Positions 23,845 to 53,564 of a DNA stretch of 64,000 nt are shown piece by piece. Within the stretch, counting starts at the first letter, position 1. Each line of letters starts with the position of its first letter. The stretch is from the IMG/VR virus record IMGVR_UViG_3300001765_000054, positions 1 to 64,000 of that record, one strand, 5' to 3'. This stretch comes from an uncultured virus (IMG/VR IMGVR_UViG_3300001765_000054). Taxonomy: Duplodnaviria > Heunggongvirae > Uroviricota > Caudoviricetes. The notes under the pieces are model-generated. The model saw only the letters and a program-made list of their open reading frames with translations, did no database searches and was not told the origin of the DNA. The translations under genes and the position numbers were made by a program.

Positions 23845-23974
23845 CTGAAACCCTATATAGGAACATATTAGCTCTATCTTTTTATATACTACTTAATTTC
23901 TAACTTTAATTTAGAGTAGAGTAATATAGGAGAAGAGTAAGAAAGAGAGATAGAGGGGTTGTAGAGGGACTTTT
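23845..23974 (+). repeat. Long inverted repeat, left copy
   Basis: 23897-23974 matches the reverse complement of 53435-53512 at 75/78; 23845-23863 matches 53546-53564 at 19/19. Confidence 0.95.
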
Positions 23975-24064
23975 GCATTTCACTCATTACGCTGAAACTT
24001 TAGCTAAATTAGCCATTTGCTGGAAAGGCTCAAAACGGTGAAAGAAGCCTCGGAAAGCCAGAAT

Positions 24065-24084
24065 TACTGTATGCGCATCCAGTA
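24065..24084. promoter_or_regulatory. LexA (SOS) box
   Basis: TACTGTATGCGCATCCAGTA, a CTG-N10-CAG close to consensus, intergenic. Confidence 0.75.
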
Positions 24085-24187
24085 GTTAGTAGGCTTGACA
24101 ACTATCTGCAGGTGGCGCCCGCGCAAACGTGATTCCCTGTGGAAGCGGGAATAATTCGGGGCTATTCGCGGCGACTGAATGATGTCG

Positions 24188-24559
24188 CTAATGGTTGCCA
24201 CCGTGCGGACCCATCCACCCACCGTAGTTGGTGTCGTCCACATCGGGTGTGTCGGAGAGGTAAGTCTTGCGCCATTTCTCCCTGGCCTTGTCCAGCCCGT
24301 CTGGGTCATCAGGGTCAGTGTTCTCCTGAATAAACCGCTTTCGGTCTTCGGCGCTCTGTATGTGTGGGGCACTTATGGGGATAAATTCAGTGTCCTTCAC
24401 GCACGTGATGTAGTACCCGCCCTTCACGCTTAGTGAATGTTCGTAGCTGAACTCATCTACAAACCCCTCGTCTTCGTAGACTTCCCAGCGCTTACCTGTA
24501 GGCGGTTTATTTTTCCTGATGAACTCTTCGACCTCGTTGGAGTCTGAAAACCAAACCAT
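24188..24559 (-). CDS. Hypothetical protein
   Basis: Acidic 123-aa ORF at the end of the minus-strand block. Confidence 0.6.
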   Translation of the reverse strand: MVWFSDSNEVEEFIRKNKPPTGKRWEVYEDEGFVDEFSYEHSLSVKGGYYITCVKDTEFIPISAPHIQSAEDRKRFIQENTDPDDPDGLDKAREKWRKTYLSDTPDVDDTNYGGWMGPHGGNH

Positions 24560-24736
24560 AACCAGCCCCTAAATAATCAGGAGGCCAATCATACGCCTAC
24601 TTGTACCGCTCGTGACTGTCCCTCGGCGGTCGTCGTTCCTTGATGCGCTTGACCAGGTAGTACAGCAGTACGGTGGTCAGCAGTGTGCGGTACACCGCCG
24701 TGATCACACGTGATACTGTGAACAACACCGCGAAGT

Positions 24737-24928
24737 TCATGAGGTCACGTTCTCGTTGAGCCACTCGATCAGTGGGCCTTTGGCTGTTGGGATGTTAACA
24801 GTCACTGTCTCGGGCTTGAACCCAGCGCGTTTGAGCTCGCCGCGTTTCTTACTGGCTTCGGTCTGGCTGGCTTGCCAGGAGGTGTGCTTGGTAAGTGCAT
24901 CGGTGTGAATGGTTCGATAAATTTGCAT
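24737..24928 (-). CDS. Hypothetical protein
   Basis: AAGGA SD, 63 aa. Confidence 0.65.
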   Translation of the reverse strand: MQIYRTIHTDALTKHTSWQASQTEASKKRGELKRAGFKPETVTVNIPTAKGPLIEWLNENVTS

Positions 24929-25036
24929 GGAGTGATCCTTTAAGTTGCGGAGTTGAAAAATGCCGGCTGATGCCGGGCGGGTTGAAGGAACCTATTGTCC
25001 TATACTGATAGGCCCATATCAAACTAGGTTCCTAAA

Positions 25037-25669
25037 ATGAAAATCATCGCACTACTCAATGAGAAGGGCGGGTCGGGAAAAACGACCGTCAGTCTGAACC
25101 TCGCCACTGCCCTGCACCGCAGGGGTCAAAAAGTGATCCTGGTGGACGCTGATCCCCAAGGCACAGCAAGGGACTGGCGAGAGGCAAGCCCTGCGGGTGC
25201 GAACTTGCCGACAGTCGTGGCCATGGACAGGCCGCAGATGCTCACTGCCCTCGACGCACTCAATGCAGACATCGTGATCATCGACACACCGGCCAAAGCC
25301 GAGTCGATGAGTGCCGTTGCCATTCGGGTCGCCCAGGTAGCCATCGTTGTCATCCAGCCGTGTGCCGCTGACATCTGGGCGTGTGCTGCGACGATTTCAA
25401 TGATCCAGGCAAAGCTCGACCTGGGCGGCAAGATCGACGTCGCGTTCCTGACGAACCGAGTCGTCAAGCACACCAGGCTGACCAAAGAGATCGAAGGTGG
25501 TGGCTGGAACGAGTACGGATTCGACCAGCTCACCTCGACCATCGGAAACCGCACAGTGTTTGCCCAAGCGTTGTCCGATGGGCTGAGCGTTTACGATTAC
25601 TCAAACGCCGATGCTAAGGCTGACATCGACGCGCTGATCAAAGAACTGGAGGCCGCACGGTGGCTATAA
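25037..25669 (+). CDS. parA: Type Ib ParA/ParF partition ATPase
   Basis: Deviant Walker A NEKGGSGKTT, LVDADPQG, IIDTP; 210 aa with no N-terminal HTH. Confidence 0.92.
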   Translation: MKIIALLNEKGGSGKTTVSLNLATALHRRGQKVILVDADPQGTARDWREASPAGANLPTVVAMDRPQMLTALDALNADIVIIDTPAKAESMSAVAIRVAQVAIVVIQPCAADIWACAATISMIQAKLDLGGKIDVAFLTNRVVKHTRLTKEIEGGGWNEYGFDQLTSTIGNRTVFAQALSDGLSVYDYSNADAKADIDALIKELEAARWL

Positions 25670-25863
25670 AAACGAAACCTATCGCTGACCTGGTGCGCAA
25701 AGACATCCCGATACACCTGGTCGCTCCTGAAGACAAGGCAGTACAGTTGAACATCACCATCCCTGCCTCGGTGCGCAAGGCGTGGAAAGAGGAAGCGCTC
25801 AAGCGAGACACGACAATCGTGGCGCTGATCCTTGGCGCGATGGGTAGAGAGCTAGGAAGTTAG
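25660..25863 (+). CDS. Ribbon-helix-helix partition adaptor (ParG-like)
   Basis: Overlaps parA end; QLNITIPASVRKAWKEEA...TTIVALI RHH pattern. Confidence 0.75.
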   Translation: MAIKTKPIADLVRKDIPIHLVAPEDKAVQLNITIPASVRKAWKEEALKRDTTIVALILGAMGRELGS

Positions 25864-25880
25864 AGAACTAGGAAGCTACT

Positions 25881-26402
25881 ATGGATCATCAGCAATGGCA
25901 GGAAAAAGACGTGAAACACGTTTGGTTCCATGTCGTCAGCGAGTCGCTACAGTCCGGCCTGATTGCAAAAATCGGCGCAGTGCCATGGGCGGTGTACTGC
26001 GTCATCAAAAGTCACGCGGGACTTGAGACGGGCAACGCATGGCCCTCAAACGCTCGTATAGGCGAATTGGTGGGGGTCAGTGTGAACACGGTACAGCGAG
26101 CCATGAAGACGCTGCTGGAGGCTGATTTGATCAAGGCGGACAGAAGCCAAGGCCGAGTCAACCGTTACTCAGTCACAGAGTCAATCAAGATCGACGAAAA
26201 AGACGGAACGCCATGGAAGACAGGGGAGCGAAAGTACGTCCCCGTCGGGTTCGGAGATTTCGTTGACCAGCTAAAGCGTCTCGCAAAAACAGGGAACATG
26301 CCGACCGACAAAGAGATAACCATCAACATCACGATAGTCCAGGGTGACAACAACACTGTTCAATCCTATAACGTAGAGGCTGCCCCCTTGCCCCCCTCTT
26401 AG
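25881..26402 (+). CDS. Winged-HTH plasmid-type replication initiator
   Basis: VYCVIKSHA...AWPS...IGELVGVSVNTVQRAMKTL...LI; followed by iterons and DnaA boxes. Confidence 0.7.
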   Translation: MDHQQWQEKDVKHVWFHVVSESLQSGLIAKIGAVPWAVYCVIKSHAGLETGNAWPSNARIGELVGVSVNTVQRAMKTLLEADLIKADRSQGRVNRYSVTESIKIDEKDGTPWKTGERKYVPVGFGDFVDQLKRLAKTGNMPTDKEITINITIVQGDNNTVQSYNVEAAPLPPS

Positions 26403-26446
26403 AAAGCGGATGTTTGGATGTCCTGCCTAAAAAACAGGCAAAAAAC

Positions 26447-26648
26447 TTATCCACCGGGTTGTGCCTTCTAATGCAGTTAGTCTTAAAGTCTTGTTAGTCC
26501 CCCATGGGTGGGGGTGGTCGGGCATCAACCACCCTCATGAGTGGGGGTAGTTTATTCACAACCACCCCCATGGGTGGGGGTGGTCGTCTGGATATCCACA
26601 CCCAAGTTATCCACATGGCCCTAAGATAAGTGCAATTATCTAAGGGCC
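26447..26648. promoter_or_regulatory. Putative plasmid-type origin: 3 iterons at 33-bp period plus 4 DnaA-like boxes
   Basis: CCC(C/T)CATG(G/A)GTGGGGGT(G/A)GT x3; TTATCCACC 26447, TTATTCACA 26552, ATATCCACA 26592, perfect TTATCCACA 26607; inverted repeat 26617-26648. Confidence 0.75.
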
Positions 26649-27329
26649 AGATTTCCCCGCGAAAAACACCCGCTGAGCTTTTGCCTGTCCGCTGCCGTGG
26701 GCGGGAAACCCAATGATCGCCTTCCTGGTAGGGTGCGCACAGATGCCGCAGGACGCGCACTGGACGTCGTCGCGCACCGCAGCAGGGCAGATGGACACAT
26801 GCCGCCCTGCCGGGGTCTTCAGGGGCTTCGTGGTGCCAATGGGCAGCACCACGACCACCGGGCCTATATCTGCGTCTGCCAGCGCGTCAGCGTGCTCCAG
26901 GTTGTTGGCTGACAGGTTGACCGTGAACCCGTTGGTGTTTGCCGCCAGGATGGCAGCCGCGTTGTCCCCGATGCCGGGGTCGTAGTGCGTGAAGGCGAAC
27001 CCGTCGCGGTTGGCGTTGGCCCCGATGATCTGGTTCAGACCAGCCTCATCAATCTCGTGGCCGTTGCCGGGCAGGTCACCCGCCTGGCCCCATCGCCAGA
27101 GCTGGTGTTTGGGCAGCTTGCGGATGCTGTCGCAGACTTCGCTCAGGGTGATGCCCCGGTTGCCAATCGACAACTGGTTCCAGTGGAGCCCCATCGGTCC
27201 GTATTCGGCGTAACAGCCCTGGCCTTTGAGTGGGCAGCAGACTGGGCAGGTAGATTTGCTGGCGGTGGTAACGGGAATAGGTCCGCACTTCGTGTTCCCA
27301 CTGACGCGGGTAAAGTGGTAAGTGTGCAT
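26640..27329 (-). CDS. Cys-rich Gp88-like/putative Fe-S protein
   Basis: GN.K.G...CP..CP....CYA, R....GD, C..CG.C motifs. Confidence 0.55.
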   Translation of the reverse strand: MHTYHFTRVSGNTKCGPIPVTTASKSTCPVCCPLKGQGCYAEYGPMGLHWNQLSIGNRGITLSEVCDSIRKLPKHQLWRWGQAGDLPGNGHEIDEAGLNQIIGANANRDGFAFTHYDPGIGDNAAAILAANTNGFTVNLSANNLEHADALADADIGPVVVVLPIGTTKPLKTPAGRHVSICPAAVRDDVQCASCGICAHPTRKAIIGFPAHGSGQAKAQRVFFAGKSGP

Positions 27330-27346
27330 AAGGAGCCCAGAAGTAG

Positions 27347-27369
27347 AAAACCCGCCGGGTGGCGGGTTT
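27347..27369 (-). terminator. Rho-independent terminator after thyX
   Basis: AAACCCGCC-gggt-GGCGGGTTT hairpin, T-run on minus strand. Confidence 0.7.
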
Positions 27370-27387
27370 GTGGGGAGTGCGTCGGGG

Positions 27388-28065
27388 TCACGCCTGGTTG
27401 TGTTTCTTCCACGCAGCCACCGCCACCGGCACGATGGGCTCGATCAACGTCAGCATGGCCTCAGCGTACACGCGGATTTCCATCTGAGCGTGCTCATGCA
27501 GCCGCAGCTTGAGGAAGTGGAACAGGTTGTGCAAATCAACCGTGGCAAACATCCGGCTGAACGTGTTCATCGGCAGCACACCACGAGCGAGCTCGCGGGG
27601 GCAGCCGCGTTCAATCATCGCGTGGTACAACCTGAACGAGTCGTGACAGTGGCTGGCGATCTGATCCTGGAGCATGATCGAATCGGGATGCTCAACGTCG
27701 GTGCGCATCTGTTTGTTCGACTTGCTCTGCATCGTGATATGGCTCACCTCTGGAACATAGTATTCGTTGGGCAGCTCTGAGTATCGAGCACTGATCTCGT
27801 TAAAGCTCCAAGTCCGGTGACGGTGCCACTGACGGAACACAAAGATCGGAGCCTTCACCTCAAAGGTGAACTGCACACATTCGAAGGGCGAAGTGTGGCG
27901 ATGCTTCATCAAATAGTCGATGAGCTTGGCGTCATCACCACCTTCTCGCCAGTCTGCGTTATATGAGACTCGCGCTGATCTGACGATCGAGAGATCAGAC
28001 CCCATGTGCTCAAGTAATGCCACTGATCCGTGGTTCAAAACTTCAATCCGTTCAGAAGACATCAT
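27388..28065 (-). CDS. thyX: Flavin-dependent thymidylate synthase
   Basis: AR.SY, H.SPFE, RQWHRHRTWSFNEISARY, AQ.EIR. Confidence 0.95.
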   Translation of the reverse strand: MMSSERIEVLNHGSVALLEHMGSDLSIVRSARVSYNADWREGGDDAKLIDYLMKHRHTSPFECVQFTFEVKAPIFVFRQWHRHRTWSFNEISARYSELPNEYYVPEVSHITMQSKSNKQMRTDVEHPDSIMLQDQIASHCHDSFRLYHAMIERGCPRELARGVLPMNTFSRMFATVDLHNLFHFLKLRLHEHAQMEIRVYAEAMLTLIEPIVPVAVAAWKKHNQA

Positions 28066-28324
28066 TTTCCTCTTCTTTCCTTAGTTCATGAAGCTCCTGC
28101 TTCATCCTGCTCACCTTTGCTGCCAAGAGTTTGAGTTTGTAGCGCTCGTCGCTACGCTGGGCGATGAGTGATACGCGTTCGACATAAGGCGCACGTATGC
28201 CATCACGAGCAAGCACGAGCGTCTGATCGTCCAGAGTCTTTGTGATCAGCGCAATCTCGATCTCGTGGCGGTGCATGGCAGCCACAGCTTCAATGTAGGG
28301 GGGATGATCTCGCATGTACATCAT
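28052..28324 (-). CDS. Hypothetical protein
   Basis: Start moved to MMYMRD, coupled with neighbours. Confidence 0.55.
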   Translation of the reverse strand: MMYMRDHPPYIEAVAAMHRHEIEIALITKTLDDQTLVLARDGIRAPYVERVSLIAQRSDERYKLKLLAAKVSRMKQELHELRKEEENDVF

Positions 28325-28527
28325 TAATCCTTGAAGGTGGGTAGCGGTCGCCAGTGGGTGCAGTAGGCTTCGATCATGGAAGGACGGTACACACCGATGT
28401 GCATCATTCCCGACGGTCTGTGAGTCAGCAGTATCCTGATACCTATAGGGGTGTGCTGGTCGATGGGGCGCCACTTCGTATCTGGGTCGACACAAGTAGT
28501 GCCGTCTTCGTTGAGCTTATAGCGCAT
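28324..28527 (-). CDS. Small DUF551/Eaa-like protein
   Basis: WRPI...P.G..IL...THWRPLP. Confidence 0.6.
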   Translation of the reverse strand: MRYKLNEDGTTCVDPDTKWRPIDQHTPIGIRILLTHRPSGMMHIGVYRPSMIEAYCTHWRPLPTFKD

Positions 28528-28777
28528 CGTTTATGTCCTCAGATTCGACGGTATAGGGGATGGTGGTTTCGGCGAGGTAGCTTGTCCGTGCTCGAGCATA
28601 TTCAGCGTCGAAACTTTTATCGTGCCGGTCACACCAGTGCATCAGGTTGGTCAGAAGATCAGCGGGGGCGTCTTCGAAATCGACGTTCGTTGCCCGTATC
28701 AACGCACGCAGGGCCAGCCCTGCAGACATGCTCCGCTGCTCGTTGTATGTGTCAGGGTCTGGTGGTAAGGGCTTCAT
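28517..28777 (-). CDS. Hypothetical protein
   Basis: DLL.NLMHWCD....F motif common in small phage proteins. Confidence 0.6.
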   Translation of the reverse strand: MKPLPPDPDTYNEQRSMSAGLALRALIRATNVDFEDAPADLLTNLMHWCDRHDKSFDAEYARARTSYLAETTIPYTVESEDINDAL

Positions 28778-28962
28778 GCTGCCGACCAGTCTGTTGCACA
28801 TTCCCCGCGTGGAGGTGCGTTATCTGGCGGCGAGGCCGGTAGCGGCGAGTTCGGCACCTGCAACCATTCTCCTGACGGGAGGCACACCCAAGGTCCTTTA
28901 AGTTGACAGATTAGATGCACAGGTTCCGTGCTTGATACGTTTGAGTTTGTTGGTTGATCCAT

Positions 28963-29910
28963 TTACATATCCTGTGGTAAGCGATGTGACACATAGGTCG
29001 GGAATCTCGGCAAGTCTTTAACCCCATGGGTCATAGTTTTAATCTTGGCGATATGTCCGACGACCTTGCCGGGATTGGCGAAATAATCGAGTGCCTCAGC
29101 GACTGACATCTCACCGCTGCCCGCCGTAACTGGTAGACCTTTCGGGAACAAGAGCTTGCCTGTTACCGGGTCATGGAAATCGGCCAGCATCGTCCCATGG
29201 ATAGAACCGACTTGGCCGTTCGGCACCATGCCCGCCTTTGCGCTGCTACGCTCTGTGCGCCCGAGGGTGTTTTTCTTAGCCTCGTTGGCATTTATCTGCC
29301 CCTCCGTAATGCCGGTGACTAGAATCTCGAAGTCAGCCCAAGGCTTCACGCGCCACAATTCCTGGCCTTTGAGCGTCGCTCGGCCAGTTTTATATGGCGC
29401 ATGTGGGTTGCGGATGATCGTGCCTTCGTACCCTGCAGCCGCAAACTGTGCGATGTTGTGGGCTAAGTGTGCAGGTGTATCCACAACGTAAGAGGGCACG
29501 AGATGCACCCGTGGATGACCCAGTTTGATGACCCGACGCGACAGTGCAGCATGTCGGTCTTCGTACCGAAGACCGACCGTCTCAGGTGTGACCAGGTCAA
29601 AAACCCACCAGTGAAGATCAGGCATTTCAGTCACGCCCTTGAACCGGCCCATCGCGCCTGTGGTCAGGCTGCATAGCCGTTCGCTGCAGTTTGGCTTGTC
29701 ACCGAGGGTCATCTCGCCATCGAACCCGAGGAATTTGGGGTGGCTAAAATAATCTGTAATGCCAAACCCCTTGAACGGGTCGAGGCTGCGGCCAGTCAAT
29801 GTGCCCTGAAGGTTTATTGCGCGGACGCCGTCAATTTTGGTCTGTACGATACAGGGAAACTGCACCTGGTCGAGGACTGCGTCTTCGGCCAGTTGAGGTT
29901 TGATTTTCAT
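28963..29910 (-). CDS. ATP-dependent DNA ligase
   Basis: KIDGVR motif I, FDGEM, WVFD, YEGTIIR, RVKP, PRFP. Confidence 0.92.
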   Translation of the reverse strand: MKIKPQLAEDAVLDQVQFPCIVQTKIDGVRAINLQGTLTGRSLDPFKGFGITDYFSHPKFLGFDGEMTLGDKPNCSERLCSLTTGAMGRFKGVTEMPDLHWWVFDLVTPETVGLRYEDRHAALSRRVIKLGHPRVHLVPSYVVDTPAHLAHNIAQFAAAGYEGTIIRNPHAPYKTGRATLKGQELWRVKPWADFEILVTGITEGQINANEAKKNTLGRTERSSAKAGMVPNGQVGSIHGTMLADFHDPVTGKLLFPKGLPVTAGSGEMSVAEALDYFANPGKVVGHIAKIKTMTHGVKDLPRFPTYVSHRLPQDM

Positions 29911-30365
29911 ACGTGCCTCCATGCTTGGTTATTTCTGATCTTGCATACAGTGGATTTAGATACTTCAAAATTTTTTGACAGCTCGCCAAGGGTTAGCAAC
30001 GAGCTGCGAATCGCCTGGACCGTTGAGGGACTGAGCTTCGAGCGAGCGTGGTTCTCGCCGGCCAAGTTCACACTTCGCCCTCTAGTTACCCTGTCGTCTA
30101 CGTTGTCCTGGGTCGTACCGAGAGATAGATGAGAAGGGTCTACACACCGAGGGTTGTCACAAGAGTGGCGAACCAGTAATCCTTCCGGGACTGGCCCGTT
30201 TGCTAACTCGTAGGACACACGGTGGGCTGAACGCTTACCACCAGATGTGGCGATCATCCCGTACCCGGCTGGATTGGTATGGCCAATCCAAAGCCAACAC
30301 CCGTCGGACTTAGTGACTTTTGCCCAGAACCGGGCAACTAGCGTATTGTTATTTGAACAACTCAT
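29907..30365 (-). CDS. Free-standing HNH endonuclease
   Basis: RFWAKV..CWLW.G...AHRVSY...VRHSCDNPRCVDP.HL..GT..DN. Confidence 0.9.
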   Translation of the reverse strand: MSCSNNNTLVARFWAKVTKSDGCWLWIGHTNPAGYGMIATSGGKRSAHRVSYELANGPVPEGLLVRHSCDNPRCVDPSHLSLGTTQDNVDDRVTRGRSVNLAGENHARSKLSPSTVQAIRSSLLTLGELSKNFEVSKSTVCKIRNNQAWRHV

Positions 30366-30402
30366 TTCATATTTCCAAGTTAGATCATAGATTCAATAGG
30401 CG

Positions 30403-30425
30403 TAAAAATGCCCGCGAACGGGCAG
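30403..30425 (-). terminator. Rho-independent terminator
   Basis: Minus strand TGCCCG-TTCG-CGGGCA followed by T-run. Confidence 0.7.
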
Positions 30426-30429
30426 TAAT

Positions 30430-30813
30430 TTATTTTCCTGGTTTCTGTCGAATAGTTATCACAAGGTTCTCAAACTCAAGGACGATGTCCCTTCCTTCTT
30501 CGGTAATCAGCATAGCTGGACGGTCGGCCAGAATCCTTGGGGTGTACTCGATAGCGTCAAGATACTTAGGCCCCTTCTGGCCTTTCCACTGGTACATCCA
30601 GCGGGGTTTGCCACGCCCTTCGCCTGCGGCGGGTAGTCGGGTCACGACGCCTTTGCGCCACATGTTGCCAAGGTAATCAGAGACCCTGGCTGCTGAGGCT
30701 GCGTGCTCCTTGACTGAGGCCATATCGAATAATTCTTGGGCATCGAGAGGTTTGTCTGACGCACGTAGAACTGCTTCTAGCGCAGGGAATAACCCTGCTT
30801 CATTGTTTCTCAT
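30430..30813 (-). CDS. Putative winged-helix DNA-binding protein
   Basis: PL.A.EL...VSDYLG.MWRKG.V.R...W.Y. Confidence 0.5.
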   Translation of the reverse strand: MRNNEAGLFPALEAVLRASDKPLDAQELFDMASVKEHAASAARVSDYLGNMWRKGVVTRLPAAGEGRGKPRWMYQWKGQKGPKYLDAIEYTPRILADRPAMLITEEGRDIVLEFENLVITIRQKPGK

Positions 30814-30850
30814 GATGATTTCCCAGTAAAAAAAAAAATAGATCGTTCGG

Positions 30851-31243
30851 TTACCCGACACGCTCTTGAATTTTTTTTGCGAGCGCGTCGCGTGGTTCAA
30901 TCAATCGTCGAAAATCATTGGCGGTATAGTCTTGATCCCATGACAATCCGTCAAAGTACACCCCTCCCTCGGTACACCCAACAACAACAGCAACCTGACG
31001 CCCTTCAGCATGTCTATTGCGCAGCCAATTTTTCTGGAGTTCGGATAGGTTAATCTTGATTAAAGTATAGGGCCTTTTAGGCACCGCAAGGTACTTAAAT
31101 TCAACCCAAAGCTCGGATTTCCTACCGCTGTACCAAACGTCGGGAATACCCGAGTTGTACTGGTTGTTGTTCTTCATCCTGTACAACTGTGCCGGCAGAT
31201 GCCGGTGGACTGACTGGATGAACGTGTTCTCAGGTGTGGCCAT
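30851..31243 (-). CDS. VRR-NUC-like nuclease/resolvase
   Basis: GIPD....WVEFK...LSELQKNWL. Confidence 0.8.
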   Translation of the reverse strand: MATPENTFIQSVHRHLPAQLYRMKNNNQYNSGIPDVWYSGRKSELWVEFKYLAVPKRPYTLIKINLSELQKNWLRNRHAEGRQVAVVVGCTEGGVYFDGLSWDQDYTANDFRRLIEPRDALAKKIQERVG

Positions 31244-31611
31244 TAGTCGGTCTGGCGTAGCACTCCGGCGTCGCACAAAGTGCCCACGGCCTTCATGAGC
31301 TCATCGAACGACGGTACTGCTCTCTTAGCCTTTGGCAGCTTGGGCTCAGCTTCAGCAATCAGCCGTTTTTCAACCAGCCGGGCATACCCAATAATGTCCG
31401 TCCAGGAGTCGACGTACTCAGGGTCTCCATTCAGAATTCTGCCCACTTTGTGTGCGAGCATCTCCAGGCACTCCTTCATATCGTCGGCCAGGCTCTCCCA
31501 GTTGTCGCCGAAGCGCATGGCTTCTTTGATCAACTGGGTCACTTCAGCGTGGTCCACGAACTCGCCGTAGCGGCTGCCGCGTTCCGCCAGAGTTTCATCA
31601 ATATTACTCAT
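31243..31611 (-). CDS. DUF6378-like protein
   Basis: L.ERG..YG...K..RI.NG...DSW.DI.GYA. Confidence 0.7.
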   Translation of the reverse strand: MSNIDETLAERGSRYGEFVDHAEVTQLIKEAMRFGDNWESLADDMKECLEMLAHKVGRILNGDPEYVDSWTDIIGYARLVEKRLIAEAEPKLPKAKRAVPSFDELMKAVGTLCDAGVLRQTD

Positions 31612-32179
31612 TGGTTGTTCCTACTTTGGATTTGGCACGCGCCGCGTTCACCGGGGGGAACAGCGCTGCTTGAATGGCTTGAACAGTACGCGCCTGGTGG
31701 ACGGCGTCGAACAATGCATTGTGTTTGGTGCCCTGGAATGGCAGCTTGATAGCCTTCGCACCTGGTAGGTTCTTGTAGGTCCTGAAGCACCGGCTGTTGT
31801 AGTACAGCCAGGGTACTTCGATGCTGAGCTGAGCGCATGCATGGGACAACATGGGGATGTCGAAATCCGCCCCGTTGCTCCACACTGTGTACTGGCCATT
31901 GCCCATCCAGTCGATGAGCCCCGCGACAGCGTTGCGCAGGGTCTGTTTTTCCTCATGGAATACGCCCTGGGCATTCGGCCCTTGCTTCATCCACCAGATC
32001 AAAGTATCTTCGCTGACCCGACGCTTGAGTTCCAGGTTGGAATCGATACTGATCGATGCGTAAAAACCGAGATCATCAAGCGCGGTTGAGTCGAGGTCGA
32101 ACTTCACCGCTCCAATGCTCATAATGCAGGCGTCTGCGGTAGTCGCTAAGGATTCCATGTCAATCATTAAATGTTTCAT
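31604..32179 (-). CDS. DEDDh 3'-5' exonuclease (RNase AS/ExoVIII-like)
   Basis: HLMIDMES, WSNGADFD, HNALFDA. Confidence 0.85.
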   Translation of the reverse strand: MKHLMIDMESLATTADACIMSIGAVKFDLDSTALDDLGFYASISIDSNLELKRRVSEDTLIWWMKQGPNAQGVFHEEKQTLRNAVAGLIDWMGNGQYTVWSNGADFDIPMLSHACAQLSIEVPWLYYNSRCFRTYKNLPGAKAIKLPFQGTKHNALFDAVHQARTVQAIQAALFPPVNAARAKSKVGTTNE

Positions 32180-32233
32180 ATTTCTCCGAAGTTGATGGCA
32201 TCGCCCACCGAGTCGTTCGGCGGGTCGGCACGA

Positions 32234-33699: not shown

Positions 33700-33724
33700 G
33701 AAAAACTTTCGTAGAACTTAGAAT

Positions 33725-44698: not shown

Positions 44699-44702
44699 GG
44701 GT

Positions 44703-46027: not shown

Positions 46028-46770
46028 CTTGTTACCCTCGGTAGGCAGGTTATGGGGATAGGTCTGTGCTTATATGCACCGCAAATGTCATACGCTACAG
46101 ACAACAATCTCTTATCCACAGGCCCAAGGTCTTGGATAAACGCTGCATGGAATAGCTCAGTGTTTTCTGGGCTTATGATCAACTCAGTGATCAACTGTTT
46201 GGACGGATATGGGTAGGGATATCGCTTAGCGCCTATCAGCTTCGTCGTTATCTCATACCAGCGCTTGTAATGGCTCAGTTTTTTACGCACCGCTGCAGCT
46301 TCCTTCAGATCTAAAACAAACTCGAAGTCCTGGGCGGGTTCATTGAGTAGGGCGAATATGCCCTGCTTGATCGGGCTGATCCGAAGAGGTTCGTGCGCAT
46401 CACGCACAAAAAGCTCCTCTTTTTCGCCCCCAGTGAATTGCCAGTACATTCTGCCGTTTCGGCTAACAATATTTGTCCCGGTAGGGCGCACCTTCCATGC
46501 GAACTGGTGACTCATATTGCTGTTGTGGGTGCTTAGCTCGATCTGCCCATCTCGATGGTATTTAACAAGAGGCGTGCTGTATAACACACACATGTATCCA
46601 TCACCATCATTAATACGAACGATGCGCTTGTTCTTATCACGCCTGGCGGCGAGTGGGCGCCAAGTAGTGAGTTCGTCTTTCCACGGTTTTGCATCATTCC
46701 AGACACGTTCTGCTTCATCGAAGCAGCTAATACGTGCTACCTCGTTACAGTTCCCACTATGCCATCCCAT
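46024..46770 (-). CDS. Hypothetical protein
   Basis: 248-aa ORF within the operon. Confidence 0.65.
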   Translation of the reverse strand: MGWHSGNCNEVARISCFDEAERVWNDAKPWKDELTTWRPLAARRDKNKRIVRINDGDGYMCVLYSTPLVKYHRDGQIELSTHNSNMSHQFAWKVRPTGTNIVSRNGRMYWQFTGGEKEELFVRDAHEPLRISPIKQGIFALLNEPAQDFEFVLDLKEAAAVRKKLSHYKRWYEITTKLIGAKRYPYPYPSKQLITELIISPENTELFHAAFIQDLGPVDKRLLSVAYDICGAYKHRPIPITCLPRVTR

Positions 46771-47602
46771 TTGGTATTCCTTTCAAAATATCCCTCGCTG
46801 CTTGGGCAGTGAGGGCGCGGATGTCGAGACGAGTGCGTAGGACGCTCGGGGGCATCAGCAGCTTGCCGCGCATTTCGCGAATGATGTGCCAGATGCCGAT
46901 GTCATCTGTTAGGTTGAGCGCGTCGAGGATTCGACAGAGCTCGACAGCGTTCGTGATCAGGCTGTCCTTGAAGATCGCATCAGGGTCGCTTAGTCTTTCT
47001 TCGATCTTCGATACAACGTCAAAGATGCGCGAGTAACACGCTTTGACTGCGTCCGCCTGGCGGTCAGCTACGGCCTGGGTGACTGACGCCCGGAGCTCGT
47101 CCTGAGCTTCAGCGGGTAGGTCTACCCGGAAGTCTTCGGCTGCGGGTATTGGCGTGAACTCGAGCTTGATAGCGAAACGCTTGGCCAGATCATCAGGGTC
47201 AGGATAATCACCTGGATCGTACATCGTGCCCAGCCGGTTTCGAGCCGCTTGAACTTCGGTTGGATAGGACGCCAGCATGTCTGTCACCAGCATTGAAAAT
47301 TGAGTTTTGTACTGGCGCATCATCGCGCTGTAGTCCATAAACAGAGCGTTCGGCAGTAGGCGTGCTCCGCTATCTGCCCAGGAATACGTGTTGAAGTAGT
47401 GGCTCTCACGGATGCGTGCTACCAGCTTGTTGATAGGCTCAAGCAAGCTCTTGGCGACGAGTGCTTTGTTGAACTTGCCAGAGTCATGTGCGTTGTGGGT
47501 GGATTCCACTTCGCGTGTGACCTTAGCGTCTTGCTTGCGTGCTGTCCATTGGGAAATAGATAGGGTGGCGAGCATAGCTTTCTCTTGAAGTATGTAGCTC
47601 AT
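46757..47602 (-). CDS. DUF3150-like protein
   Basis: L.IS.W...K.D...W...G.RLLP...DYP...DFRV; neighbour of AAA/VWA genes. Confidence 0.6.
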   Translation of the reverse strand: MSYILQEKAMLATLSISQWTARKQDAKVTREVESTHNAHDSGKFNKALVAKSLLEPINKLVARIRESHYFNTYSWADSGARLLPNALFMDYSAMMRQYKTQFSMLVTDMLASYPTEVQAARNRLGTMYDPGDYPDPDDLAKRFAIKLEFTPIPAAEDFRVDLPAEAQDELRASVTQAVADRQADAVKACYSRIFDVVSKIEERLSDPDAIFKDSLITNAVELCRILDALNLTDDIGIWHIIREMRGKLLMPPSVLRTRLDIRALTAQAARDILKGIPNGMA

Positions 47603-47780
47603 GGTTTTCCTTTATGTGTTTCATAAGTTCGGCCACGCTCTCAGCACGAAGCTCAAGGGTGCAGACGGCGTGGTACTGGAACGTGGCGATATAGTCTTCA
47701 GGCTTACCACCGAACTTCCGCACTCGCTCGGCGACGGAAGGTATGAGGACTATGGGTTTATGACAGTGAAGGCAGTTCAT
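47523..47780 (-). CDS. Hypothetical protein with CxxC
   Basis: MNCLHCHKP; coupled start. Confidence 0.5.
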   Translation of the reverse strand: MNCLHCHKPIVLIPSVAERVRKFGGKPEDYIATFQYHAVCTLELRAESVAELMKHIKENHELHTSRESYARHPIYFPMDSTQARR

Positions 47781-47941
47781 AATCCTCTTCTTTTTCTGGA
47801 TATGAGCGTTTCAAGGTGATGCACAGTTCGCCTCGTTACTTCGCGTAGTAACGAAACGTTAATGCCCAACAAACGGGCTTCGATTATCCTGGCAGTGTGA
47901 AGCTCGATGAGCTCAGCGTGCTTCTGGGTCTTGGATTTCAT
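47777..47941 (-). CDS. 54-aa protein not in the ORF track, paralog of the upstream ORF
   Basis: MKSKTQKHAELIELHTARIIEARLLG versus MKSALWKRKQFLELYASKLIEARMLG. Confidence 0.55.
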   Translation of the reverse strand: MKSKTQKHAELIELHTARIIEARLLGINVSLLREVTRRTVHHLETLISRKRRGL

Positions 47942-48113
47942 AATCGCCCCGCCTTTTAAACTCTATGAACCGTCTGAGGTTTTCGAGGTTCTTTTTAGTC
48001 GGCTTGCTCATGGAGATCATCCATTGAGGGTGAGCTCCTAGCATGCGCGCTTCGATCAGTTTGCTCGCGTATAGCTCGAGGAACTGTTTGCGTTTCCAGA
48101 GAGCGCTTTTCAT
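47913..48113 (-). CDS. Hypothetical protein
   Basis: ATGA overlap with the HNH stop. Confidence 0.55.
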   Translation of the reverse strand: MKSALWKRKQFLELYASKLIEARMLGAHPQWMISMSKPTKKNLENLRRFIEFKRRGDYEIQDPEAR

Positions 48114-48718
48114 TTGTGATAGCATTTTCTTTTCTGCCCTTTGGGGATGAGACAAGCTTCTTCCTCAGTCCAACCGTATTTCAGTCGGTTTAGGATGAGC
48201 GTACTTTCTCCTCCAAGTTCTCTGACCCATGCACTTATGCACATCGTTCTACCTCCTGCAGTTAAAAGCCGTGTTCGAGTTGTGTTTTGAGCCTGCTGGA
48301 GGTCAGTAGCCCAGTAGCAGTTGCTCGGTTCGTAGTTACCATTGTTGTTGCGTCGCTCGATACTGCATCCCTCCGGGCGAGCTCCCATATCTTTTAGGAA
48401 TGATTCGAAGTTGTTCCACCTTTCACATACCCTAATTCCGCGAGCGCCGTAGTGCATGTACGATTTAGCTTTTGGGTTGCTACATCGTTCACGCATCGAG
48501 GTCCACACTTTATGTAGCGGGGTGCCAGACAAACCATGAATGGTTCGAACACACCCGCATGACGATGTGTTTCCTTCTTGCAGTGCTTTGTTGTTGGTGA
48601 TCTTGAAACCACCACAGCTACATGCGCAATACCAAGAAGAGCGACTTTTTTCGTTGGGCAGCCTGGTAAGGACGGTAAGCTGGCCAAATGTTTTACCTGT
48701 AATGTCTGGAGTCTTCAT
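48110..48718 (-). CDS. Free-standing HNH endonuclease, same family as the nested one
   Basis: DITGKTFGQLT, C.CSCG, SCGC, YGARGI.VCERW, SIER.NNNGNYEP.NC.WAT. Confidence 0.9.
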   Translation of the reverse strand: MKTPDITGKTFGQLTVLTRLPNEKSRSSWYCACSCGGFKITNNKALQEGNTSSCGCVRTIHGLSGTPLHKVWTSMRERCSNPKAKSYMHYGARGIRVCERWNNFESFLKDMGARPEGCSIERRNNNGNYEPSNCYWATDLQQAQNTTRTRLLTAGGRTMCISAWVRELGGESTLILNRLKYGWTEEEACLIPKGQKRKCYHK

Positions 48719-48775
48719 AAAATGCCTTTAATCTAAGTTAGATTATAGTAGTTTAGGAAGATCAACAAAAGGACA

Positions 48776-49762
48776 TCACAATAAAATTGACTGGTTCTTC
48801 ACGCACCAATCCCGATACGATTTCGTACCCGTCAGCTTCCCGTCCCGGCGGATCGCGCTGCGCACGAACACGGCCTGGAACTCGACAGGCAGTCGAGCGG
48901 TGTACTTCATGATCCGCTCCAGGTTCCCGGTGGTGGCCTTCGCGTCAAGGGCTGTGACCATGGCGTACATCGAGGCTGGATTGGCCGGCACTTTGACACT
49001 ATCAGGGTCAATCAGCACCTGGTTGATGTCTGGTAAGTCCTTGATAAGGTTCACGAAGCTCGTAAACTCGGCTGTGGTGCCCTCACCGACAGCACCTTTG
49101 ATGAGTTCGAACTCGATGTCTCGGGGCAGGTTCTTTTTGTACTGTTTGTTGACGAAGCTCCAGGAACGTGGGCTGGGGAAGGCACGCGGGTTGTTGGCCA
49201 CGTCGAAGTTAAACAGCAGGTTCGGACGGAACTGGATGAAGGCACGGAGATCATCGTGCATCTCGTTCTCCATCGCCCAGAAGTTCCAGTCGTCGACGCT
49301 GACCTCGAAGTCCAGGTGTACAAACCGGTTGGCCAGTGCTGCGGGCATGGCGTGAACAACTGAGCGGTCAGAGGCACGATTACCAGCGGCGATGACGCTC
49401 CAACCATCAGGCAGGTGGTACTCACCGATACGGCGGTTGAGGATGAGCTGGTACGCAGCGGCCTGCACGGACTGAGGGGCAGCGTTGAGCTCGTCGAGGA
49501 ACAGGATGCCCTTGCCCTTCTTGGGCAGGAAGTCAGCGGGCAGCCATTCCATCTGCTTCTTGACTGTGTTGATCGTAGGAAACCCACGAAGATCGATCGG
49601 GTCCATGAGGGACAGCCGCACGTCGCGCAGCTCGAGCTTCATCGACTCAGCAACTTGTGCGATCACGTCGGATTTACCGACTCCAGGTGCGCCCCAGATA
49701 AAGACCGGAGACTGCTCGTGGATCATATGAGGAAGGGCAACTTTGAGGGCGGAAGGTTTCAT
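48776..49762 (-). CDS. MoxR/dynein-related AAA+ ATPase
   Basis: GAPGVGKS, LFLDELN, AAGNR, LANRF, SPRSW. Confidence 0.9.
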   Translation of the reverse strand: MKPSALKVALPHMIHEQSPVFIWGAPGVGKSDVIAQVAESMKLELRDVRLSLMDPIDLRGFPTINTVKKQMEWLPADFLPKKGKGILFLDELNAAPQSVQAAAYQLILNRRIGEYHLPDGWSVIAAGNRASDRSVVHAMPAALANRFVHLDFEVSVDDWNFWAMENEMHDDLRAFIQFRPNLLFNFDVANNPRAFPSPRSWSFVNKQYKKNLPRDIEFELIKGAVGEGTTAEFTSFVNLIKDLPDINQVLIDPDSVKVPANPASMYAMVTALDAKATTGNLERIMKYTARLPVEFQAVFVRSAIRRDGKLTGTKSYRDWCVKNQSILL

Positions 49763-49810
49763 TTTGGATACTCCTGGTTTGAATGTAGAACTTAGAACTT
49801 AGAAGTTTGG

Positions 49811-50062
49811 TCAGACTGTTTCGGCCTCTCCGGTCAGTCTGTAGGTGATAGCGTTTTGTGGTGTCATCCAGATGATGCTGTGGTTAATGCAGCGGACATC
49901 TCCTGGGAAAGTGCAACGGTGGCGATCTATGCGTTTTTCAGCAAATTCGCATCCTGTGCAAAAGACCCCATCTGTTTTTACTGCGAACAACGTCCTGAAC
50001 TGGTGGACCATCGTTTCACCTGGTCGTGCTTGTTTCATATCGATACGATCGTTAGTAGACAT
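49811..50062 (-). CDS. Hypothetical Cys-containing protein
   Basis: C.GC.F...C...C pattern. Confidence 0.55.
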   Translation of the reverse strand: MSTNDRIDMKQARPGETMVHQFRTLFAVKTDGVFCTGCEFAEKRIDRHRCTFPGDVRCINHSIIWMTPQNAITYRLTGEAETV

Positions 50063-50307
50063 ACAACAACTACAAGGAACACGAACACATCATTCAGGAT
50101 GCAGGATATGAGCAAATCGAAGTGCAAGTCGTCTTCGATTCTGTCCAGGTGGCTGAATGGATTGATCATCATGTCGGGGGTAGGTCGATGGCGGCGGTCT
50201 GCCAGCTTCCACTTATCACCAAGGAACTCGACACTGCGCAGCCAGGCTTGCTGGTTGTGCTCGCTGTTCGGGTAGTGGTGTTGGGCACGCTCTTCGAGGG
50301 TTAACAT
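50035..50307 (-). CDS. Hypothetical membrane protein
   Basis: C-terminal hydrophobic segment. Confidence 0.5.
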   Translation of the reverse strand: MLTLEERAQHHYPNSEHNQQAWLRSVEFLGDKWKLADRRHRPTPDMMINPFSHLDRIEDDLHFDLLISCILNDVFVFLVVVVCLLTIVSI

Positions 50308-50467
50308 GGTCGGCGTCCGTGATGAGGTTCGAGAGCATCCGGGTGGAATGCTTTGGGGTTTTCGTTTTTGAGCCGATCGACCATGTCGTCGATGGCATCA
50401 ATCTTGTCTTTGGCCGTTATGTATTTCATTTTGGCTACAGCACGGAGCCGTTCACGTTGTTGGTCGG

Positions 50468-50776
50468 TCAGCATAGGGTTCCCGCAGATTTAAGGTGCGA
50501 ATGATCAGAGCCTGGGCGGCGGATACTTAAGGTGTCACCGTCGCCCGTAGCGTATGGTCGGAGGTGGTAAGTGACATAGTCGCGAGAGTTGGCCTCATCG
50601 GGTTTAGGGGTACGTGCTTCCCAAGGAGCACCGTTTAGGCCATTCGCGTACTTAGGCTTGCCCGCTTGAGAAGGACGGACTCGTACTTGTTTGCGCGCCT
50701 CGATATGTCTGGGTGGGACGACTGTTGACTGATAGTCGTTGGACTTTTGACTGAGGTTGAAGAGTTGGTTTGCCAT
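50468..50776 (-). CDS. Hypothetical protein
   Basis: 102-aa ORF after the primase. Confidence 0.55.
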   Translation of the reverse strand: MANQLFNLSQKSNDYQSTVVPPRHIEARKQVRVRPSQAGKPKYANGLNGAPWEARTPKPDEANSRDYVTYHLRPYATGDGDTLSIRRPGSDHSHLKSAGTLC

Positions 50777-50831
50777 GATCTGTGTTCGATCTTAGATGGT
50801 TAGATGAGGCGTTTCATTTGATTTCTCCTAT

Positions 50832-53270
50832 TTAGACTGATGTACTGATAGTCGTTTTGATGTCTGTGAAGTATGTCTTCAGCAGGTCGGGGAATGTTTC
50901 TGGGCGCTGCCAGGTCACTGTCAGCCCCTTCTGGGTCTTGCCGTCGATGAACACCGGCTTTATGGCGAGCTGGCGGTGGCCAAGGAAACGCGTGAAGCTG
51001 GCAGGGCTTGGGTTCATCTTGCCGACGGTGTAGTCGAACAGCACAAACAGCTCATCACGATGCACGTGGCACCACCCTGCAGCACGAGTGCGTGCAATGA
51101 TATCTGCGAGCGTCCTGCGGTAGTTGCTGACTGAGGTGAGCTTTTCGAGATCGAGCTTGTAGCGGTCATCTGTCGGGAGCTGGTCGATGAAGAAGTCGAT
51201 GTTGCCTTCAGTAATGGCTGAAGCGGTTGATTCAGCAGTGGTTTGGGACAACTCAATCAGATGATCACGTGCTTTGGACTTCAGTGGTGTGCTTGCGATC
51301 TGAGTGTCCACAGCGTAGCTCAACAGGTAATGGTAGAACGCTTGAAGGTCGCCTTCGATGGCATCGACTTCGGCATCGGTTGGGCGGGGATATTCAGCAC
51401 CTTGGTAAAAGCCAATGTTGAACCGTCGATCATTTTTGTCAACGGTGACAGGGTCAGGTTTGTTGCTTGCAAAAATCCAGTTGGTGAAATTGGCTACAGC
51501 GTAGCTGTTCTTGTTCATGATTCGAATCATCGCAGTTGGTTCTGTGATCAGGTTTTTCATGTTGGCAATAACCCCTGCTTCATCTTTGAGAGCAGAAGTT
51601 TGGATTTCGTCGATAAACACAATGAGTTTGCCTTCCACGAAGTCCGTCCACTTTTCAGTCAGCTCCCCAGCGCGTTTGATAACGGCTTGGTTCACACCGA
51701 ATAGGGGCTGCAGAATCTTGTTGAACAGCAGGCCCTTCCCTGTACCAGGTACGCCTTGAAATACCCAGGCTGTACGGGTACGGTCAAGGTTCTGGGCGAT
51801 ACATGCGAGCCAGTTCATGAAATGCTCGATGCTGTCGAAGTCATCGGCTAAGATATGGCTGATGATGCGTAGTATCCGAGGAGGAATCTTTGTAACTCGT
51901 TTGGCTTCCGCCTTCATGTACTTGGTACGCTCGAATGTGTTGATGCTTCGATTGTCAAAGTCCACACGAACGCCATCCATTGGGTTGAAGGTCATATCCC
52001 ATTCAGGAATGTTTTCACCAAGACGTAATCCATTAGCTGATGCAAATTGACGCACCATCGATTCGTTCTTGGCTTGGAACAATTCAAGTTTGTCTTCTGA
52101 CTGGTTATACGTGCCACGGTAATAGGTGGACGTGCTTCGCTCTAAAAAGGCTAGGTAGGTCAAGCCTGTTGAGCTAACACGATAGGCTTGGTGGGAGAGG
52201 GTCTCCCAATACGCTGGTAAGAGTTCTTTGGTGAGGTAGACAGGTTCACCCTTAAAGTTGAAGATGTAATCGGGGTTGTTTTCAGGATGAAAGTAGGCCC
52301 AGGAATCTCCACCATTAAGGTTGAAGTAGACAAACCCCCGATCAGTCTTAATTTCTGTGGCGATGCACTCGCCTGGTTTCACGAGAATCTCGTGACCACC
52401 CACAAACTTGTAGGCAAGCTTGCGCTTGGGCAGTCCAGCGACATCACGTAATTCGAGAACACGTGTATCGGTAAGAGCACGGTTTTGGTCGGTTGAATTG
52501 ATGCGTTCATTGAGATCGAAGGTTGCTTCTGACTTAGATATTATAGATATTCGCGGGGTTCTCCCGAGCGGATTCTTGATCCCTTTTAGGGTAGGAGGCG
52601 CGATGTAGATGAGCTTGTCTGATTGGCATGCTGTGATGTCCAAGCCCCATAATAATGAGTTGCCTGTTTTCGTCAGTTGCTGATGAGCTCTGAGCACAGA
52701 TACTTCATGGTTCTTTTGGATTAACCACTGTTTGATGAGCGGGGCAGACACAGGTTTGGTGAGCATCACGAAGATGTGGCAGCGCAACGAATTGTTGCTG
52801 ATCCCCATAGAGCCTGACCATTGCACTATATAAGATGTGTTCTTAATACCGAGAGCGTCGAGTACAGCATTTGGGGTGATAGCGAGAGTCGTTTTCACTT
52901 GAGTAATTACTTCTTCCAATAGCCCCGTGCTCAAGTTAGTTTGTTTAGTTGTGACTGATGAAGTTGTATCGAATGTTGGGGGGATACCGTCGATGTCGAG
53001 GCACAACCAGTCGGTGGGCGCGTTGCGGTCAGTCGAATCTTTTCGTGACTCCTTTGTTAACGGCTTTAACACATTGCCTTTCAGCAGACAATTTCCAAGG
53101 GCTGCATGTTTAACGATTGCGGATTCAAACGATTTCAAATCGTTCACATCCTCAGTTATCGAGCTGACTTTCCACACGTTGGGGTAGCTGGACTTCTCAA
53201 TTGATCCGTCTGGGAGTTTGGTGTACGACTTGGTCAGGGGCACTGACGAATTCAAAAAGGTTAGTTTCAT
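50832..53270 (-). CDS. Primase-helicase (PrimPol-like N-terminus plus SF3/DUF5906 helicase)
   Basis: LCLDID, S.S...RCHIF; GVPGTGKG, VFIDE, FASN, DRRF. Confidence 0.85.
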   Translation of the reverse strand: MKLTFLNSSVPLTKSYTKLPDGSIEKSSYPNVWKVSSITEDVNDLKSFESAIVKHAALGNCLLKGNVLKPLTKESRKDSTDRNAPTDWLCLDIDGIPPTFDTTSSVTTKQTNLSTGLLEEVITQVKTTLAITPNAVLDALGIKNTSYIVQWSGSMGISNNSLRCHIFVMLTKPVSAPLIKQWLIQKNHEVSVLRAHQQLTKTGNSLLWGLDITACQSDKLIYIAPPTLKGIKNPLGRTPRISIISKSEATFDLNERINSTDQNRALTDTRVLELRDVAGLPKRKLAYKFVGGHEILVKPGECIATEIKTDRGFVYFNLNGGDSWAYFHPENNPDYIFNFKGEPVYLTKELLPAYWETLSHQAYRVSSTGLTYLAFLERSTSTYYRGTYNQSEDKLELFQAKNESMVRQFASANGLRLGENIPEWDMTFNPMDGVRVDFDNRSINTFERTKYMKAEAKRVTKIPPRILRIISHILADDFDSIEHFMNWLACIAQNLDRTRTAWVFQGVPGTGKGLLFNKILQPLFGVNQAVIKRAGELTEKWTDFVEGKLIVFIDEIQTSALKDEAGVIANMKNLITEPTAMIRIMNKNSYAVANFTNWIFASNKPDPVTVDKNDRRFNIGFYQGAEYPRPTDAEVDAIEGDLQAFYHYLLSYAVDTQIASTPLKSKARDHLIELSQTTAESTASAITEGNIDFFIDQLPTDDRYKLDLEKLTSVSNYRRTLADIIARTRAAGWCHVHRDELFVLFDYTVGKMNPSPASFTRFLGHRQLAIKPVFIDGKTQKGLTVTWQRPETFPDLLKTYFTDIKTTISTSV

Positions 53271-53325
53271 GGCGGTTTTAGAGGTTGATGGGAGGGTGAT
53301 TCTAAGCACGAATTTAGATCAAAAC

Positions 53326-53345
53326 CACTGTTCATTTGTACAGTT
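53326..53345. promoter_or_regulatory. LexA (SOS) box upstream of primase-helicase
   Basis: CACTGTTCATTTGTACAGTT = CTGT-N8-ACAG; TAGAAT -10-like hexamer at 53304-53299 on minus strand. Confidence 0.65.
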
Positions 53346-53434
53346 GTTTCGTGTTTTCGCGTCTTCTTAGTGATTTTTCCAACTTTTCGACAAAGCACCA
53401 TTTTGGTGCATTTTTCAGTGTAATAGCGTAATGA

Positions 53435-53564
53435 AAAAGTCCCTCTATAACCCCTCTATCCCTCTTTCTTACTCTTCTTCTATATTACTCTACTCTAAAT
53501 TAAAGTTAGAAAAGAGAAGTAGTAGTATAGGTAGGGTATATATGATTCCTATATAGGGTTTCAG
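53435..53564 (-). repeat. Long inverted repeat, right copy
   Basis: Reverse complement of the blocks in 23845-23974 (75/78 and 19/19). Confidence 0.95.

Follow-up and report, generated by a model that had tools for sequence, protein, structure and literature searches.

Paired repeat-flanked elements as candidate lytic origins in a KPP25-like phage and its relatives

The element pair and its anatomy

The stretch of DNA analysed here (the window) comprises bases 1-64000 of the 65,901-base virus record IMGVR_UViG_3300001765_000054, a near-complete KPP25-like podophage whose primase and major capsid protein are 39% and 58% identical, respectively, to those of Pseudomonas phage KPP25. Two non-coding, intergenic elements bracket its replication block: copy V, named for the giant virion gene that it follows, and copy P, named for the primase-helicase gene upstream of which it lies (Table 1). 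They are best described as two copies, since diverged, of a single easily melted module flanked by repeats and are considered here as candidate lytic origins. Their locations, upstream of the primase-helicase and at the convergence of late and replication transcription, agree with an original prediction made from the sequence of the window alone.

A gapped self-alignment returned 23845-23997 and 53413-53564 as inverted copies with 85% identity over 157 columns (E 7e-41), and a repeat search delimited inverted arms of 88 nt at 93% identity (23897-23984 / 53425-53512); the predicted inverted repeat pair is therefore real. Its 78-bp core with exactly three mismatches was recovered at 23897-23974 (longest exact run, 33 bp), as was the perfect 19-bp block containing the palindrome CCTATATAGG at 23845-23863 / 53546-53564. 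The "diverged spacer" that the original prediction placed between the core and this block is present, but it is actually a pyrimidine-rich, easily melted core. Homology between the copies extends from 23832 to ~24070, with identity dropping along the way. Among the other minus-strand self-matches of the 65.9-kb genome, the next is a local palindrome (E 2e-4) and the best long-range match has an E of 0.3. Rfam and tRNA scans over the window gave no matches, and the element DNA matched 7 of 50,697 phage records, all at chance level.

A further record containing both copies (G001) is 100% identical to the window phage over 41.8 kb and possibly derives from the same data; therefore, it does not provide independent confirmation. 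No contig from four runs over 22500-25500 spans the region, and contigs cannot phase the shared 33-bp run. The concern of the original prediction that one copy might be an assembly artefact is answered by the relatives described below, since 25 of the 32 other records possess a pair of their own, each with its own sequence.

Among the 43 first-scan loci, the upstream regions listed contain an A+T element with short tandem repeats that is first pyrimidine-rich and then purine-rich. In an alignment of 75 P elements, the reverse repeats have one peak at -100 to -80 and a further one at +40 to +65, forward repeats occupy 0 to +30 with a spacing peak of 8 nt, and a G-free pyrimidine/A+T core extends from about -70 to 0; at least two opposed repeats on each side of the A+T region are clear across these family elements. 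In 46 of 77, the first repeat has a TATA-type palindrome ~60 nt to its left. In a ranking of 60-bp windows by nearest-neighbour duplex energies, P and V were the two weakest in all of the two-copy records tested (23 of 23). A hairpin mechanism was ruled out, as single-strand folding of the four strands gave z-scores of 0.24, 0.41, -1.99 and -0.27 relative to shuffles, with three of the four no better. At fourfold sites of 15 near-complete records, GC and AT skew indicated coding strands that are C-rich throughout, more weakly towards V.

Copy number, orientation and position among relatives

For the survey of relatives, 43 other records were rebuilt, in whole or large part. G001 was set aside as the same phage, and G010, G012, G013, G015-G019, G039 and G050 because they do not span both sites; G020-G027, G046, G047 and G052 lie outside the sample. 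The resulting spanning set comprised 33 records, including the window (G000). Two copies were found in 26 of the 33, with one in the early region or ahead of the primase-helicase gene and the other following the giant virion gene, and a single copy in seven (G032, G036, G038, G042, G043, G044 and phiA008). One-copy relatives, which the original prediction had named as evidence against the pair, thus occur in these seven, but not in the remaining 26. The pair is inverted in 11 records (G000, G003, G004, G005, G006, G008, G028, G041, G048, G049 and G051) and direct in 15 (G002, G007, G009, G011, G014, G029, G030, G031, G033, G034, G035, G037, G040, G045 and KPP25), where G009 and G014 are one strain, V of G002 is cut by a contig end, and G038 among the single-copy records is a 91% fragment. 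On the primase and virion-protein trees (29 rows), orientation changed at least five times and the two/single state at least three times.

Element sequences are unrelated between clades and their positions are equivalent: across 16 near-complete records P and V are separated by 0.37-0.50 of the circle, and the first copy of KPP25, located in the early region 12 kb off the primase gene, is nearly opposite V (31,860 of 63,687 bp). A record's own V is the best match to its own P in 16 of 23 records. Within the window clade, P-V identity is 85-96% versus far weaker cross-genome matches, which points to gene conversion or re-duplication as the process that would keep the copies alike in some lineages; in the G029/G034 and G033/G040 clades, P and V descend separately. 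Additionally, the early-region copy of KPP25 (26390-26831, L001) is followed by two or three partial right-flank repeats (41-nt units) that form a local repeat array.

These states bear on two readings that the original prediction had offered. The first, that the pair consists of strand-specific priming sites with one per strand, agrees with the inverted pair of the window and with NrS-1, the closest solved homologue, for which the part of PMC7102993 concerned with priming gives one 8-nt recognition site per strand. However, the direct pairs in 15 of 26 two-copy records and the single copies in 7 of 33 contradict a strict strand-specific pair as a family-wide rule, and the strands form no stable single-strand fold; this reading is therefore considered very improbable.

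The second, that the pair consists of recombination sites inverting the 29.5-kb replication block, is hardly credible. The 88 nt at 93% identity and the 33-bp exact run could permit occasional homologous exchange, and the two copies resemble each other more closely in inverted than in direct pairs (8 vs 13 records, p 0.027, with one clade driving the signal). This is a hint that exchange may be tolerated by inverted copies alone; between direct copies, it would remove half of the genome. However, the replication block keeps the same orientation relative to the virion genes in 33 of 33 records, including the 11 with inverted pairs. As the original prediction had observed, the window phage has no site-specific recombinase match, in that neither a tyrosine integrase (PF00589) nor a resolvase (PF00239) was found in its genome (the large serine recombinase PF07508 was not searched). 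Resolvases matched in 0 of 32 records, and tyrosine integrases in 17 of 32 searched (15 above the cut-off), mostly near V at the end of the replication block and alike with inverted, direct and single states, so that neither enzyme tracks the pair. With a block that is never flipped and no recombinase match in the window, inversion sites are not supported. The idea that the second copy tracks the lysogeny mode was also rejected, because integrases are found with all three states.

One of the records set aside, a Variovorax brevis contig (G050:C10 ~26000-52300, L340), holds a cryptic prophage remnant. It has an integrase-like gene, one element, the replication block, and early genes as far as a small-terminase-like gene; the G050 genome gave no match to a capsid gene. 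An origin of this remnant as a P-by-V excision product was ruled out, since the early genes upstream of P are intact.

Primase-helicase, proposed repeat recognition and proposed replication mode

A profile built from 26 full-length homologues of the primase-helicase (30 were intended; four rows were dropped for frame errors) matched NrS-1 polymerase (E 1e-48). The protein also matches DUF5906 (E 1e-18) and has a superfamily 3 (SF3)/DUF5906 helicase domain. Its predicted structure (predicted local distance difference test, pLDDT, 83) matches NrS-1 polymerase with Z 26.4 over residues 356-786, SaPI5 PriRep with Z 16.2, and D5-type helicases. The C-terminal tail (~708-800) is a predicted winged helix with alpha-beta-alpha-alpha-beta-beta order (pLDDT ~80-92) and a beta-hairpin at 771-786, and its Atlas look-alikes are DUF3874 (0.93) and Pox_D5 (0.90); a prediction of the isolated C-terminal domain without an alignment (pLDDT 41) was not used. 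The N-terminus has no direct PDB sequence match. Its invariant D92, D94 and H165 (DxD + His) resemble archaeo-eukaryotic primases (AEP), and its Atlas look-alikes are RepB_primase and AEP-TOTE (0.88-0.89), both being leads only. No DnaB-type helicase was matched among the 59 window proteins scanned, and a plasmid search with the primase-helicase gave four weak partial matches.

The identity of two wing residues follows the identity of two repeat bases. From 160 loci, 146 with a gene start and enough upstream DNA, 120 of full length and 84 non-redundant ones were successively retained; 80 of these have a clear element and 78 a wing motif, with repeat base 2 callable in 74 rows and base 5 in 68 rows. 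At base 2, G accompanies K or R at residue 772 in 32 of 33 rows, and T accompanies other residues in 41 of 41 (73 of 74 in all). R or K at residue 774 occurs with C at base 5 in 6 of 6, C is found in 1 of 62 rows with other residues, and for W774 the base is G in 49 of 54. Of all 812 columns, 772 and 774 each score highest for their respective bases (adjusted mutual information 0.83 vs 0.41 for the next column, and 0.59 vs 0.47). On a tree built without the tail, tree-independent pairs were 5:0 for 772 (p 0.06) and 4:0 for 774 (p 0.125). Sequences not used for the rule also fit it, namely KPP25 (S/R at 772/774, GTAAC), L336, L338, L340, L341 and, judged by eye, L344. Apart from KPP25, the held-out check covered 12 loci; L337 among them duplicates an earlier row and six were not scorable.

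P and V switch repeat type jointly. The sister records G008 (R/W) and G028 (Y/W) carry GGAAG and GTAAG, respectively, at both copies, and the same agreement is seen in G030 (K/R, GGAAC) and KPP25 (GTAAC). The sharing of the P repeat type by V, even across the G008/G028 switch, argues that V is maintained as a binding site for the same protein. A separate clade nested among the close relatives of the window (L116 and L119, also L014, L017 and L018) has switched to a GTAGC/ATAGC repeat type in many copies, with a long GTA run in the core and S772/A774.

Very improbable is a reading in which the elements serve regulation, as promoter or transcription-factor arrays, or in which some protein other than the primase-helicase binds them. 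In its favour are the position of P immediately before the primase gene and the TCTAAnTTAGA palindrome, with one mismatch, in each core; this motif has 13 sites in the window at up to one mismatch vs 0.67 expected. However, the repeat letters track two residues of the primase-helicase itself, neither element has a sigma-70-like promoter, V lacks a sense gene to drive in most records and occurs in either orientation, and 12 kb separate the first copy of KPP25 from the primase gene. P could additionally serve in autoregulation.

The reading that we favour, as likely although far from certain, is that both elements are lytic origins bound by the predicted winged-helix tail and probably firing bidirectionally; the paired lytic origins tied to the primase-helicase in the original prediction are supported in this form by anatomy, conservation and protein-DNA covariation. 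The tail would bind the repeats, and hexamers would self-load on them as SaPI PriRep5 does and then melt the core, with the pyrimidine-rich half of each strand serving as loading and priming template for one outward fork. SF3 helicases move with 3'-5' polarity. The two-fold compositional symmetry would let a copy work in either orientation, and firing in both directions would account for the second copy facing either way. Forks from P, which is 3.7 kb away from the early/late divergence, would therefore move codirectionally with transcription, and V, 37-50% of the circle away at the convergence, would likely be a second start site.

Several points weigh against two origins of this kind. Forks from V would meet transcription head-on at both sides, and P lies upstream of its primase-helicase whereas SaPI origins lie downstream of rep. 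The seven single-copy records imply that V is not essential and, on this survey, that the second copy is dispensable in some lineages. GC skew, a check proposed in the original prediction, has no sign change at P or V at the fourfold sites described above. The left flank in the window has one clear repeat only per copy, and the ranking by melting is to some extent circular, since the copies were located partly by their A+T content. Regarding the covariation, the rule was chosen after seeing the data; a first, cruder classifier, which was refined once, gave 69 of 73 rows with tree pairs of 4:1 and ~5:0. In the tree-aware test neither site reaches p 0.05 alone, and only the pooled 9:0 does, assuming that the sites are independent. 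The held-out cases all lack K/R772 and hence cover the T branch only. Exceptions are L140 (R772 with T) and G044/L185 (Q772 with repeat GGTAC, removed by the score filter), and L116, L119 and L174 carry other repeat types.

A somewhat unlikely alternative keeps P as the sole firing origin, with V binding the primase-helicase as a fork barrier that triggers the switch to concatemers, or as a cis helper or titration site in the manner of P4 crr. V sits at the convergence of transcription and at the meeting point of P forks (by the distances given above for the 16 near-complete records and for KPP25), a barrier model for SPP1 oriR is stated in the relevant parts of PMC3485210 and PMC6316719, and all of the covariation evidence fits a barrier or helper V equally well. 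However, V keeps the whole anatomy, with a core as meltable as that of P in 23 of 23 records, which a pure barrier does not obviously need, and the orientation of V varies, whereas that of a polar barrier would be expected to stay constant. Possible, though doubtful, is a broader proposal in which the large, mostly uncultured KPP25-like family runs a two-origin chromosome, with V at the fork-meeting point beside the lysogeny slot acting as the concatemer switch, and in which a repeatedly re-written two-residue/two-base code of the wing predicts the origin from the protein alone.

Known systems and neighbouring genes

The closest likeness to the candidate origins is found in the staphylococcal pathogenicity islands (SaPIs) and phage-inducible chromosomal islands (PICIs). 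Like their Rep and PriRep5 proteins, the protein here would combine primase, SF3 helicase and C-terminal winged helix in one chain, the winged helix being predicted and the primase domain a lead. PMC9371898 describes opposed repeats of 5-6 nt on either side of an A+T region as the binding sites of the SaPI winged helix, and the SaPI/PICI origin, as here, has an extra inverted repeat on one side; in the portion of the PriRep5-origin structure report on recognition (bioRxiv 10.64898/2026.10.17.759575), the wing reads repeat bases in the major groove. Unlike in SaPIs and PICIs, the element resides in a full 60-70-kb phage that encodes its own virion and is not a helper-dependent satellite. It also occurs twice, about half a genome apart, shows a strong change from pyrimidines to purines and, in contrast to an origin directly downstream of rep, lies upstream of the gene (P) or 27 kb past its end (V).

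The layout also resembles SPP1 oriL and oriR, which the origin-related parts of PMC6316719 and PMC3485210 describe as two similar sites with repeats and A+T unwinding regions recognised by one phage protein (such binding being predicted here), one near the replication genes and the other in the late region. In the same parts, SPP1 uses a separate initiator gp38, a loader gp39 and a DnaB-type helicase, whereas one fused protein likely performs all of these tasks here; SPP1 oriL lies inside gene 38 with the sites ~12-13 kb apart, whereas both copies here are intergenic. For NrS-1 polymerase, the closest solved structure to the helicase and tail by both of the scores given above, the known site in the priming-related part of PMC7102993 is an 8-nt single-strand priming sequence, one per strand, and origin recognition by the NrS-1 tail is noted as not addressed in the corresponding passage of PMC9371898. 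Unlike in SPP1, orientation and copy number vary across the KPP25-like family. Satellite phage P4 has two separated repeat-bearing A+T sites, ori1 and crr, which are bound by the alpha primase-helicase, are both needed in cis and differ in layout. In contrast, the copies here are full ones and one is absent in 7 of 33 records, which argues against a strict need for both.

The genus Kochitakasuvirus (Pseudomonas phages KPP25, phiR18, CRPAP1904 and YMC17/07/R4900a) has the same gene set and order as the window, and the window phage is, judged by its primase and capsid identities, a distant relative outside this genus. KPP25 carries the pair, and the other cultured members match the KPP25 element at 4-5 places each. 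Word searches of PMC13340246, PMC12870095 and PMC13730344 on Kochitakasuvirus returned no mention of a replication origin or such repeats, and a literature search, with the original KPP25 description (Virus Res 2014) and supplements outside its scope, found no description of these elements in KPP25-like phages.

A PriRep-type origin and the presence of two origins in SPP1 are known parts; added here are a survey of orientation and loss throughout the family and the covariation between two residues and two bases. Combined, they provide candidate origins for a group that includes cultured Pseudomonas aeruginosa phages, for which none were found described, and suggest that copies of a PriRep-type origin can arise, invert and disappear within one family. 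The covariation over ~75 natural protein-origin pairs complements the PriRep5 structure, and natural sister pairs make origin specificity directly testable. Additionally, the role of a second phage origin (second start, barrier or helper) is a proposal even for SPP1, and this family offers inverted, direct and single states for comparison.

Table 1. Coordinates of the candidate origins and other features in the window
Feature	Position	Strand	Remark
Copy V, origin-like element	23832..23997	+	directly after giant virion gene, at late/replication transcription convergence
Copy V reverse repeats	TTACAT 23832; TTACGC 23987		
Copy V pyrimidine/A+T core	~23864-23912		
Copy V forward repeats, GAGTA(G/A)	23914, 23919, 23935		
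Weakest 60-bp duplex window of genome	starts 23854		in copy V
Copy P, origin-like element	53413..53576	-	~140-300 nt upstream of primase-helicase ATG; V-like anatomy
Copy P reverse repeats	TTACAC 53576; 53431; 53423		
Copy P forward repeats	53495, 53490, 53474		
Second-weakest 60-bp duplex window of genome	53469		in copy P
Primase-helicase gene, 812 aa	50832..53270	-	ATG 53270
Wing residues 772-774 (P-V-F in window)	50949..50957	-	identity tracks repeat bases 2 and 5 in relatives
Giant virion protein gene, 2722 aa	15648..23816	+	last late-block gene; position marker for copy V in relatives
Terminator-like hairpin	53655..53678	-	closes upstream early gene just before copy P; consensus match only
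ParA, plasmid-type module beside copy V	25037-25669 (module 25037..26649)	+	
Rep-like HTH_36 protein, plasmid-type module	25881-26402	+	
Three 22-nt repeats, 33-nt spacing, plasmid-type module	26499-26586		
DnaA-box-like 9-mers, plasmid-type module	~26447, 26552, 26607		
TCTAAnTTAGA sites	1664, 4616, 30374, 34177, 48732, 54917, 56594, 57258, 62017 and others		
Hairpins with GGTACTCC centre	56090-56109, 56633-56652, 57027-57046		
DNA polymerase A, 1160 aa	34763-38245		probable intein
SNF2-like helicase, 1096 aa	38478-41768		probable intein
Homing-endonuclease genes (one GIY-YIG, two HNH)	6261-7022, 29907-30365, 48110-48718		

Related primases were found in contigs labelled Polaromonas, Verminephrobacter and Variovorax; therefore, a Comamonadaceae-like host is plausible. 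A protein query from the end of the virion gene gave one locus only among viral contigs.

Beside copy V, the ParA and Rep-like genes, repeats and DnaA-box-like 9-mers form a probable plasmid-type replicon that occupies the slot where many relatives carry an integrase, which suggests that the window phage is a phage-plasmid as a lysogen, with a third, unrelated origin. ParA and Rep-like genes are present in G006 as well, and G036 has a ParA match. Sequences resembling tRNA 3' ends, recognised by eye just past the giant virion gene or the integrase in G002 (~69700), G043 (~64950) and G044 (~3450), probably mark attP sites that lie no more than a few kb from where V is positioned.

The TCTAAnTTAGA palindrome, a probable regulator box, lies mostly shortly before gene starts in the window; exact copies are frequent in some relatives (5-6 in G002, G003, G007 and G017) and absent in others. 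Three hairpins upstream of early genes share the constant centre GGTACTCC, with stems that differ yet remain paired, and each adjoins TGACTGA; no hairpins with this loop were found in the other records scanned. DNA polymerase A and the SNF2-like helicase are ~500-640 aa longer than in KPP25 and, given this extra length and their split profile matches, probably contain inteins; the primases of L107, L124, L129, L140 and L219 are likewise ~270 aa above the usual length. Three homing-endonuclease genes are also present in the window.

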